In this document: positions 35,417-35,632 of the stretch, in pieces
How the letters are laid out: each line of letters begins with the position of its first letter
How positions within the stretch are numbered: position 1 is the first letter of the stretch
DNA from: an uncultured Oribacterium sp.
GTDB lineage: Bacteria > Bacillota > Clostridia > Lachnospirales > Lachnospiraceae
Assembly: GCA_900768305.1 (NCBI GenBank)
Contig: CAAGCJ010000035.1
Coordinates: 21,357 to 85,356 of the forward strand
DNA length: 64,000 nucleotides
Reading direction: 5' to 3'
Notes under the pieces: generated by a model
The model's database searches: none
The model's input: only the letters and a program-made list of their open reading frames with translations
Told to the model about the DNA's origin: nothing
Made by a program: the position numbers and the translations under genes

Positions 35417-35632
35417 CGGAGTGCTGCAGTCAGAAGCCATACGGAGAGGTCGTGAAGAATCAAAATCTCATCCCTTAGAAGCACTTAGTGCAAATTTTCC
35501 TTGGACCCCTCTGCAACGCCGAGTTTTCATAAAGAAAACTCGGTGATTGCAGAGGGCTTAGTGCTTCTTAGGGATGAGATTTTAGAGTCTTCCGAGCTCG
35601 CAGTACTGCGCTTCTGCCTGCAGCACTCCGGG
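35417..35632. repeat. ~216-bp imperfect palindromic intergenic element, copy 1 (ERIC/MITE-like)
   Basis: Outer arms ggagtgctgcag.cagaagc pair with gcttctgcctgcagcactcc. Nested arms aaaatctcatcccttagaagcact/agtgcttcttagggatgagatttt. Central hairpin ccgagttttc-ataaa-gaaaactcgg. A homologous copy lies at 43962-44187. Confidence 0.65.

Follow-up and report, generated by a model that had tools for sequence, protein, structure and literature searches.

Two copies of a long, imperfect palindrome lie in a 64,000-nucleotide stretch of DNA from an uncultured Oribacterium sp. (assembly GCA_900768305.1, contig CAAGCJ010000035.1, positions 21,357 to 85,356 of the forward strand; hereafter, the window). 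Our analysis indicates that both, i.e., copy A and copy B, probably belong to a family of non-autonomous transposable elements of the miniature inverted-repeat type (MITEs) that has been amplified throughout Oribacterium. We propose that a DDE transposase making 8-bp staggered cuts would mobilize the element in trans. Following insertion, pairing appears to be under no detectable constraint, such that single pair-breaking substitutions accumulate; the copies also seem to exchange interiors with other copies and, by losing sequence between short direct repeats, to shrink to half-elements and to hairpin stumps of 20–65 nt. Part of this course can be followed at orthologous sites. The extensive covariation between the arms would reflect differences between amplifying sub-lineages, among which only hairpin-competent variants spread, and may include a contribution from DNA-level template switching from arm to arm. 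We infer that it does not stem from purifying selection on RNA at each locus.

The two window copies

A preliminary description of the window had reported a nested-palindrome repeat, present twice with compensatory substitutions, and had proposed that it was either an ERIC/RUP-type MITE or a structured RNA. Both repeats are present where they had been placed, with hairpins slightly longer than first given:

35407..35640, plus strand: copy A, long-hairpin core of the putative MITE, ~231 nt (sequence and fold, hidden Markov model)
35521..35541, plus strand: apical hairpin of copy A, GAGTTTTCATAAAGAAAACTC, loop CATAAAG (same 21-mer in copy B, 44073–44093)
43960..44191, plus strand: copy B, long-hairpin core, ~231 nt (sequence and fold, hidden Markov model)
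44191..44201, plus strand: right box of copy B, resembling a terminal inverted repeat, GTGAACAGTAA (family consensus CTGAACTGTTAC)

Copies A and B share the same orientation and are 84% identical over an alignment that takes in a few flanking bases. Each folds into one hairpin of ~100 pairs, with a minimum free energy of −156 kcal/mol for copy A (35405–35640; z = −18 compared to dinucleotide shuffles) and −172 kcal/mol for copy B (43950–44195; z = −18, with 0/200 shuffles as stable). A hidden Markov model (HMM) built from full copies matched copy A at 35411–35636 (model positions 3–228, E = 8e-66) and copy B at 43963–44187 (E = 8e-69); beyond these, neither the HMM search nor the apex 21-mer revealed a further full copy in the window. 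The core sequence and the paired differences that had been quoted between the copies, i.e., ccgag/ctcgg versus ctgag/ctcag and cttagaagcact/agtgcttcttagg versus cttagcggcact/agtgccgcttagg, are correct. In contrast, the outer arms, previously described as entirely different, are homologous and alignable, sharing CTCGG, GCAG, and GAAGCCATACG, with many paired differences.

The flanking genes are also as first named. The stop codon of aroA (confirmed by Pfam EPSP_synthase) lies 5 nt before copy A and a tRNA-Glu promoter lies downstream at 35666–35694, while copy B occupies the intergenic region of divergent RNase H1 and HAD-hydrolase genes (both confirmed by Pfam). The element has no conserved open reading frame (ORF); one of 90 aa spans copy B, but it matches nothing in Pfam and copy A has no equivalent. 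A GAACAGTAA-type box had been noted after each copy; this box is the family's terminal inverted repeat (TIR), and it follows copy B (GTGAACAGTAA) but not copy A. The termini of copy A are eroded, with no TIR box (≤3 mismatches) and no target-site duplication (TSD). Copy B has a possible left-box counterpart, ATACGGTTCAG, at 43901–43911, with ~50 extra nt between box and core, and no recognizable TSD; it falls in the same sub-lineage as L081, which occupies another locus. Copies A and B are older family members that lack recognizable TIRs (apart from the right box of copy B) and TSDs.

Just to the right of copy B, and upstream of the TATAAT of the HAD gene, is a perfect palindrome with 10-bp arms (AATTCGTATA-cactcagtt-TATACGAATT, 44203–44231). 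This palindrome is absent from the orthologous region of L060 and may be an operator or another small insertion.

Family size and distribution

Exact matches to the apex 21-mer, scanned in one genome per species, occurred in more than 109 stretches among the matches listed, almost all of them from Oribacterium isolates or metagenome-assembled genomes (MAGs) and with several per genome; the window repeats are clearly not an isolated pair without homologs elsewhere. In the fetched loci (~0.8 Mb), the HMM gave at least 130 non-overlapping matches, 57 of them full length, with a uniform core length of 230–232 nt. Strong HMM matches numbered 8–22 per assembly in at least 10 Oribacterium assemblies, these counts being lower bounds. 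No copy was found in the phage (IMG/VR, INPHARED) or plasmid (PLSDB) collections. No Rfam family matched at gathering score in the window, where the miRNA/snoRNA matches seen were due to chance and far below threshold; at permissive E-values, copy A, the extended copy in L093, and a second module that can be nested within the element likewise gave only chance matches. We found no earlier description of the family in Oribacterium or Lachnospiraceae in the literature, and the main text of a 2024 prokaryote-wide MITE survey does not mention Oribacterium.

Many contigs of Oribacterium MAGs have an end within the element, in many cases only a few bases from its apex. These include L004, L005, L010, L012, L014, L016, L017, L019–L021, L031, L046, L051, L052, L054, L055, L058, L059, L063, L064, and L067, among others. 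Since contigs break within this hairpin repeat, the element is a systematic assembly breakpoint in Oribacterium.

A diverged relative at L011:6822–6974 has its apex changed to GAGTTCTCATCAAAGAGAATCTC and longer, entirely different outer arms (333 nt, −160 kcal/mol); the exact 21-mer scan therefore captures only part of the family. The 21-mer GAGTTTTCATAAAGAAAACTC also occurs in an unrelated conserved context (…GAGCGAACAAAAAGGAGTTTTCATAAAGAAAACTCCTTTTTTTGAGCTCGT…) at L003:727, L076:6678, L077:5316, L082:297, and L089:3376, in hosts that comprise Lachnospira, Eubacterium, a Lachnospiraceae MAG, and a Bacteroidales MAG. About 0.3 chance matches to a 21-mer were estimated for a collection of that size, so that chance does not readily account for the sharing; the context looks like a bidirectional terminator of a widely shared, probably mobile, sequence.

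Terminal inverted repeats, target-site duplications, and size series

Element ends were set by anchor motifs and the HMM; the outermost base pair of single-sequence folds overshot into the flanks. Intact copies reach ~15 nt beyond the core on each side, giving a unit of ~260 bp, or about 385 bp when an extra nested module is present (e.g., L093), and are bounded by TIRs of ~12–14 bp (GTAACAGTTCAG(S)C... / ...CTGAACTGTTAC). Beyond the core, the motif ACAGTTCAG was found near the left end in 21/61 copies and CTGAACTGT near the right end in 15/61, compared to 5% in controls. The L093 element is paired from its first G to its last C.

We searched for TSDs as 8-mer direct repeats bracketing the inverted ends at symmetrical offsets. 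Perfect 8-bp TSDs were present directly outside the TIRs in L011 (TAAGTTAC), L028 (GTTTACTT), L022/L085 (CTTTATTT), L060 (ATGCATTG), and L093 (ACTAAATT); the corresponding rate for chimeric controls, which combined left and right flanks, was 0.8%. A family with TIRs, a TSD fixed at 8 bp, no capacity to encode protein, and numerous dispersed copies fits the definition of MITEs. Thus, of the two identities proposed at the outset, the ERIC/RUP-type MITE is supported by an element that is multicopy, genus-wide, and furnished with TIRs and 8-bp TSDs. We also considered whether the variable complementary outer stems could be palindromic TSDs; this was rejected, as the outer segments on the two sides are complementary in inverted orientation and not direct repeats.

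Elements with common ends form a graded size series from 36 nt to 386 nt, which includes 'half' elements consisting of one arm only. A 51-nt mini-element in L008 has the TSD GTAAATTA and the same ends. The window itself contains the following short members, none with an assigned strand:

18735..18769: stump upstream of tRNA-Pro, hairpin GTTCGGGCAGGGGG/CCCCTCTGCCTGAAC and right box CTGAACAGTTAC; only the element termini are left
33292..33356: mini-element, 65 nt, TIRs ATTGCTGTTCAC / GCGAACAGTAAC; DNA fold z = −5.7
40179..40212: stump directly after a gene end, GAGGCCCC-TCC-GGGGCCTC then right box CTGAACTGTTGT
54345..54396: mini-element, 52 nt, internal deletion, with left box GTAAGTGTTCAG, element-terminus sequence GCCGCCCCCTCCAGGGCCCCCTGG, and right box CTGAATGCTTAC

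The 65-nt mini-element is flanked by the direct repeat TATCTGAT (33284–33291 and 33357–33364), and its interior contains CATACGG / CAGTAC motifs that resemble the conserved internal loop of the long element. No TSD was found for the 52-nt mini-element. The stump at 40179–40212 has the same form as the aroA-locus stumps of L111 and L112 described below.

A further box pair in the window, GTAACAGTTAAA … CTGAACAGTTAC at 3585–3640, surrounds 32 nt of inserted, non-palindromic sequence (fold z = −0.2). Within this insert, AAGTCAGTCAAGG resembles AAGTCAAGG, the extra sequence between left box and core in copy B and L081; the family ends may here enclose a different cargo.

Conserved architecture and covariation of the hairpin

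We aligned 61 full copies and predicted their structure with RNAalifold. The interior of the element forms a single long palindrome, imperfect, with about 100 base pairs between its arms. It is interrupted by conserved irregularities that give the element polarity: the apical loop CATAAAG, a one-sided internal loop of 17–20 nt, of which there are two versions (…GGTGTTATCTCTCCTTGGAAC… or …GGAGTAATTTTTCCTTAGCAC…), the internal loop CCATACGNAGAG // CTCGNAGTACTG, and, within CTTAG/CTTAG, a T.T mismatch. A 2x2 loop is conserved in the CGGCAC sub-lineage. The columns of the apical 21-mer were invariant in 61/61 copies, though the copies had been retrieved by exact match to that 21-mer. Two segments, i.e., V1 (columns ~17–26) and V4 (columns ~59–64), are locus-specific and hypervariable, each being complementary to its own partner arm.

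The covariation seen between the two window copies extends very strongly across the family. RNAalifold predicted 81 pairs, of which 55 showed at least one double change. Paired cells amounted to 96.3%, compared to 83.8% in shuffles, and doubly changed cells numbered 597, compared to 169 ± 12.5 in shuffles and ~90 in control registers slid by 1–3 columns. The covariation score was 0.349 versus 0.120, and 0/500 shuffles scored as high. Many double changes were transversion flips (CG<->GC, AU<->UA) and one-sided wobble intermediates were almost absent, with a consensus G.T pair at one position in 29/61 copies.

Gene orientation and strand symmetry

We then compared the copies with the behavior expected of RNA genes. 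Of the 61 aligned copies, those between ORFs were in tandem (28), convergent (7), and divergent (6) gene contexts, and in tandem contexts the element lay equally often in the same and the opposite orientation to neighboring genes (14 and 14, respectively). Mean folding energies were −150.2 kcal/mol for the plus strand and −148.9 kcal/mol for the minus strand, with the plus strand folding better in 31/72 cases. Sporadic G.T/T.G pairs (76) and A.C/C.A pairs (59) did not differ significantly. Promoter and terminator scans found no consensus inside the element, and T-runs following it in the direction of the upstream gene were rare and not enriched (4/55 versus 5/55).

Insertion, decay, and probable exchange at orthologous sites

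L098 (flanks ~95% identical) and L110 (98% AroA identity) have the full element at the aroA locus, where L113 (94%) retains a remnant of ~60 nt. L111 and L112 (95% and 94%, respectively) contain only CGAGCCCC-TCCG-GGGGCTCG and a T-run, keeping the CCTCCGGGG terminus of the element. L114 (83% identity) has an ordinary terminator and no element, and L115–L117 are likewise without it. At the copy B locus, L060 contains an element, with the TSD ATGCATTG, ~100 nt from the position occupied in the window; the window has unoccupied sequence at the L060 insertion point, L060 is without the insertion of the window, and the flanks are ~89% identical. Since the two elements lie at different positions, they are probably independent insertions in one intergenic region.

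Other polymorphisms between present and short forms were deletions of pre-existing copies between short direct repeats. These comprised the loss of 163 nt between GGGNCCCGG repeats (L034 versus L085), a deletion between CGGAG repeats (L028 versus L006), and a collapse to a 25-nt stump (L068 versus L007). At the L062/L037 site, the elements have the same outer ends and interiors from different sub-lineages, and L006 and L028 differ in loop type; both observations point to exchange between copies. The element can also persist, being found at the same site in genomes with flanks only 74–80% identical (L049/L061 versus L029). At the orthologous site of L008 and L041, the intergenic gap bearing the element measures 287 and 694 nt, respectively; this difference of ~400 nt suggests that something else was inserted or lost beside the element in one of the two.

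All-against-all BLAST yielded nine pairs of close orthologs with flanks at least 95% identical. In these pairs, we counted 29 single stem changes, 20 of them pair-breaking, and 3 double changes; by our tally, changes amounted to ~2.4% per stem nucleotide compared to ~2.8% in unpaired columns. TSD-bearing copies had fewer non-Watson-Crick pairs than the remainder (2.8 versus 5.0). The pattern in individual copies is that of decaying DNA and not of RNA genes under constraint. Because close orthologs decay at about the rate of their flanks, any selection acts on which lineages amplify and is not visible per locus; the covariation of the family would therefore arise from differential amplification of hairpin-competent variants and/or from arm-to-arm copying. 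The earlier argument that covariation implies selection on the fold holds insofar as covariation is very strong family-wide, but the mostly single, pair-breaking changes of close orthologs, which occur at about the unpaired or flank rate, do not bear it out.

Candidate mobilizer and relation to known elements

The published TIRs of ISDge4, an IS66-family element from the ISBst12 group, are GTGACTACTCAGCA/GTAACTGCTCAGCA, and its direct repeat is 8 bp long (PMC12898284); the ISBst12 group occurs in Firmicutes such as Geobacillus (PMC8024623). The Oribacterium ends, GTAACAGCTCAGCC and GTAACAGTTCAGSC, and the 8-bp TSD resemble those of ISDge4 and, with ISDge4 as the reference, agree with the features of the group, i.e., inverted repeats starting GTAA/GTRAC and an 8-bp direct repeat. 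Since the TIRs of ISDge4 are nearly identical to those found here and its duplication is likewise 8 bp, an ISBst12-group enzyme is the best candidate mobilizer. In contrast to the ISBst12 group, the Oribacterium element has no transposase gene, and the link rests on ~12–13 of 14 terminal bases (our count) and TSD length. From these sequence features, we regard an ISBst12-type (IS66-family) enzyme as a lead only, with somewhat less than an even chance of being the mobilizer. As a possible parent insertion sequence, we considered box pairs 0.7–3.7 kb apart; the two pairs that were read enclose only housekeeping genes (HflX-like and ABC-transporter) and were rejected.

Known bacterial MITEs with long hairpins, including ERIC/IRU (enterobacteria), Correia/NEMIS (Neisseria), RUP/BOX/SPRITE (pneumococcus), and QMITE2, are similarly small, non-coding, multicopy, and intergenic. 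They also have TIRs, short direct repeats where they are inserted, and transcripts predicted to form very stable stem-loops. ERIC is a 127-bp element of enterobacteria and RUP a 107-bp element of pneumococcus, and processing by RNase III or RNase E has been shown for Correia and ERIC. The likeness to ERIC and RUP is one of kind, not of family, the Oribacterium element being set apart by its host (Oribacterium, Lachnospiraceae), length, and ends. QMITE2 of Coxiella has 7–9-bp direct repeats, 23–29-bp TIRs, and a reported hairpin ΔG of −113 (PMC10969869); general reviews of bacterial MITEs are available (PMC3184786, PMC2229807). Compared to such hairpin MITEs, the Oribacterium palindrome has greater length and fewer imperfections (~100 pairs, −150 to −170 kcal/mol), and its interior is conserved in architecture yet contains locus-specific complementary segments, within a size series of 36–386 nt. 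REPINs are hairpin-forming doublets that behave as a within-genome population, persist for long periods, and occur alongside short REP-like singletons (PMC3116915, PMC3337134). The Oribacterium element is likewise hairpin-forming and persistent, with short stumps, but it has TSDs and TIRs, is much longer, and has no known association with the REP-associated tyrosine transposase (RAYT). The family appears not to have been described before; it is of a known kind, i.e., the hairpin MITEs, and appears to match none of those named above in family. It stands out by the length and quality of its palindrome, its locus-specific complementary segments, and a full size series with one pair of ends.

Weighing of alternative explanations

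Several observations weigh against the explanation proposed here. The best empty site was found at only ~89% flank identity, with no clean one at high identity. A clean TSD together with both boxes is present in only 6/62 full copies (5 loci) and in neither window copy, such that the MITE status of the window copies rests on homology to intact copies. The fetched loci (~0.8 Mb) yielded no transposase gene bounded by such ends. The conserved mismatches and loops, together with the hypervariable complementary segments, exceed the needs of a transposase that binds TIRs only and hint at an additional constraint. Finally, the 3 double changes in close orthologs compare with ~0.1 in our rough estimate of chance, and in our reading of the sequences the outer stems of aroA-locus orthologs differ by paired changes; some in-situ process therefore keeps the arms complementary.

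Such a process could be mechanical, with intrastrand template switching (quasi-palindrome correction) or ectopic gene conversion producing 'compensatory' changes in one step; we consider this somewhat unlikely as the source of the covariation, and it would rival only the inference of selection, not the identity of the element as a MITE. The mechanism is documented for hairpins in RNA genes, where template switching causes several simultaneous complementary changes in both stem arms without wobble intermediates (PMC8794818), whereas in Oribacterium it would act on a mobile DNA palindrome. It would account for the near absence of wobble intermediates, the frequent transversion flips, the locus-specific V1 and V4 with their own complements, the symmetrical behavior of the two strands, the double changes in close orthologs and in the aroA outer stem, and the interiors and loop types swapped at L062/L037 and L006/L028. 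However, the small asymmetries that it should erase (T.T mismatch, CGGCAC 2x2 loop, one-sided loops) are kept in nearly all copies, and most changes in close orthologs are single and uncorrected (29 versus 3). Conservation of these small mismatches argues for some sequence-specific constraint at the spreading step, so template switching is not a full explanation. A doubtful, related reading makes the core a structured module, the fold of which, as single-stranded DNA in mobilization or as RNA, is needed for spread or has been co-opted by the host, while the arms co-evolve by intrastrand template switching, which would furnish every locus with hypervariable but perfectly complementary segments of its own, and only a few mismatches and loops are kept. 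The REP/REPIN type, spread by a domesticated HUH tyrosine transposase (RAYT) and not by a DDE transposase, is very improbable. TSDs and classical TIRs, both present here, are not expected from RAYT/IS200-type single-strand transposition; moreover, the element is twice the typical REPIN length and no RAYT gene turned up in the loci, although no systematic RAYT search was made. This holds despite an intergenic-only hairpin of two inverted halves, common REP-like stumps, persistence at the same site across species with flanks 74–80% identical, and the reported evolution of REPINs as hairpins (PMC3116915).

Two further alternatives place the function of the element in the RNA or its host. That the repeats are paralogous structured RNA genes, i.e., small RNAs or cis-regulatory elements with a hairpin under RNA-level purifying selection, would be suggested by the covariation, the conserved unpaired motifs and T.T mismatch, the consensus G.T pair, and the optional extra multi-hairpin domain in the internal loop of some copies. 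We nonetheless consider it quite improbable, and this half of the preliminary proposal is not upheld: there is no match to an Rfam family even at permissive E-values, orientation to flanking genes is even, the two strands fold equally well with balanced G.U and A.C mismatches, internal promoter and terminator consensus is absent, transversion flips abound with almost no G.U intermediates, orthologs decay at roughly the flank rate, and the TIRs and TSDs show transposition. Co-option by the host as transcription terminators or stabilizers of mRNA 3' ends would explain retention after gene ends. Copy A lies between the aroA stop, 5 nt away, and a T-rich tract, relatives at this site have a stump hairpin and T-run resembling an intrinsic terminator (or, in L114, an ordinary terminator), and many copies lie within 5–30 nt of ORF ends. 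Still, T-runs are not enriched, copies also occur in divergent promoter regions (e.g., copy B), and a terminator scan found nothing at copy A or B, making this role unlikely.

A second structured module and other features of the window

A second repeated module of ~95–117 nt (…GATGCCCCCGGGCGGCGAGGCCGTTTTGCC…GGCAAAATCAAACGACGATGCCCGCGCCGTAGGCGCATC…ATGGCATCGTCTCC) consists of two hairpins, in which a few pairs covary, and matches nothing in Rfam. It was found at these sites:

25803–25895 of the window, minus strand: solitary, flanked by a gene end and a terminator, and convergent with RNase P RNA
L108:4399–4490, L093:6791–6907, L006:4323–4438 and 6149–6217, L015:1–78: further sites

In L108, the module is solitary and sits directly upstream of a gene that looks like gyrA by its N-terminal sequence. 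The 5' internal loop of the long-hairpin element houses the module in L093, L006, and probably L015, with TTGGT repeats on either side. The window additionally contains three tandem tRNA-Glu(CTC) genes right after copy A (35724–35980), an RNase P class A RNA (25386–25732), and a T-box leader (29867–30101); these are ordinary features that help to place the window in a Lachnospiraceae chromosome.

Implications

The family explains recurrent features of Oribacterium sequences, namely MAG contigs that end in the same 21-mer and, in the window, scattered 'GAACAGT' boxes and short GC-rich hairpins. It also offers a candidate insertion sequence family for this gut and oral genus of Lachnospiraceae. 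More broadly, it is a cautionary case in which a mobile DNA palindrome yields overwhelming covariation statistics although no evidence points to selection at the RNA level; when dispersed repeats are tested for covariation, the outcome needs to be checked against orientation, strand symmetry, and substitution patterns at orthologous sites. If arm-to-arm copying does occur, the family would be a useful natural model of how long stems are maintained. If the core were a structured module of the kind considered above, it would provide a many-copy natural system in which to watch one-step 'compensatory' stem evolution, and Oribacterium would also host a second, nested module (95–117 nt) that occurs alone upstream of gyrA as well.

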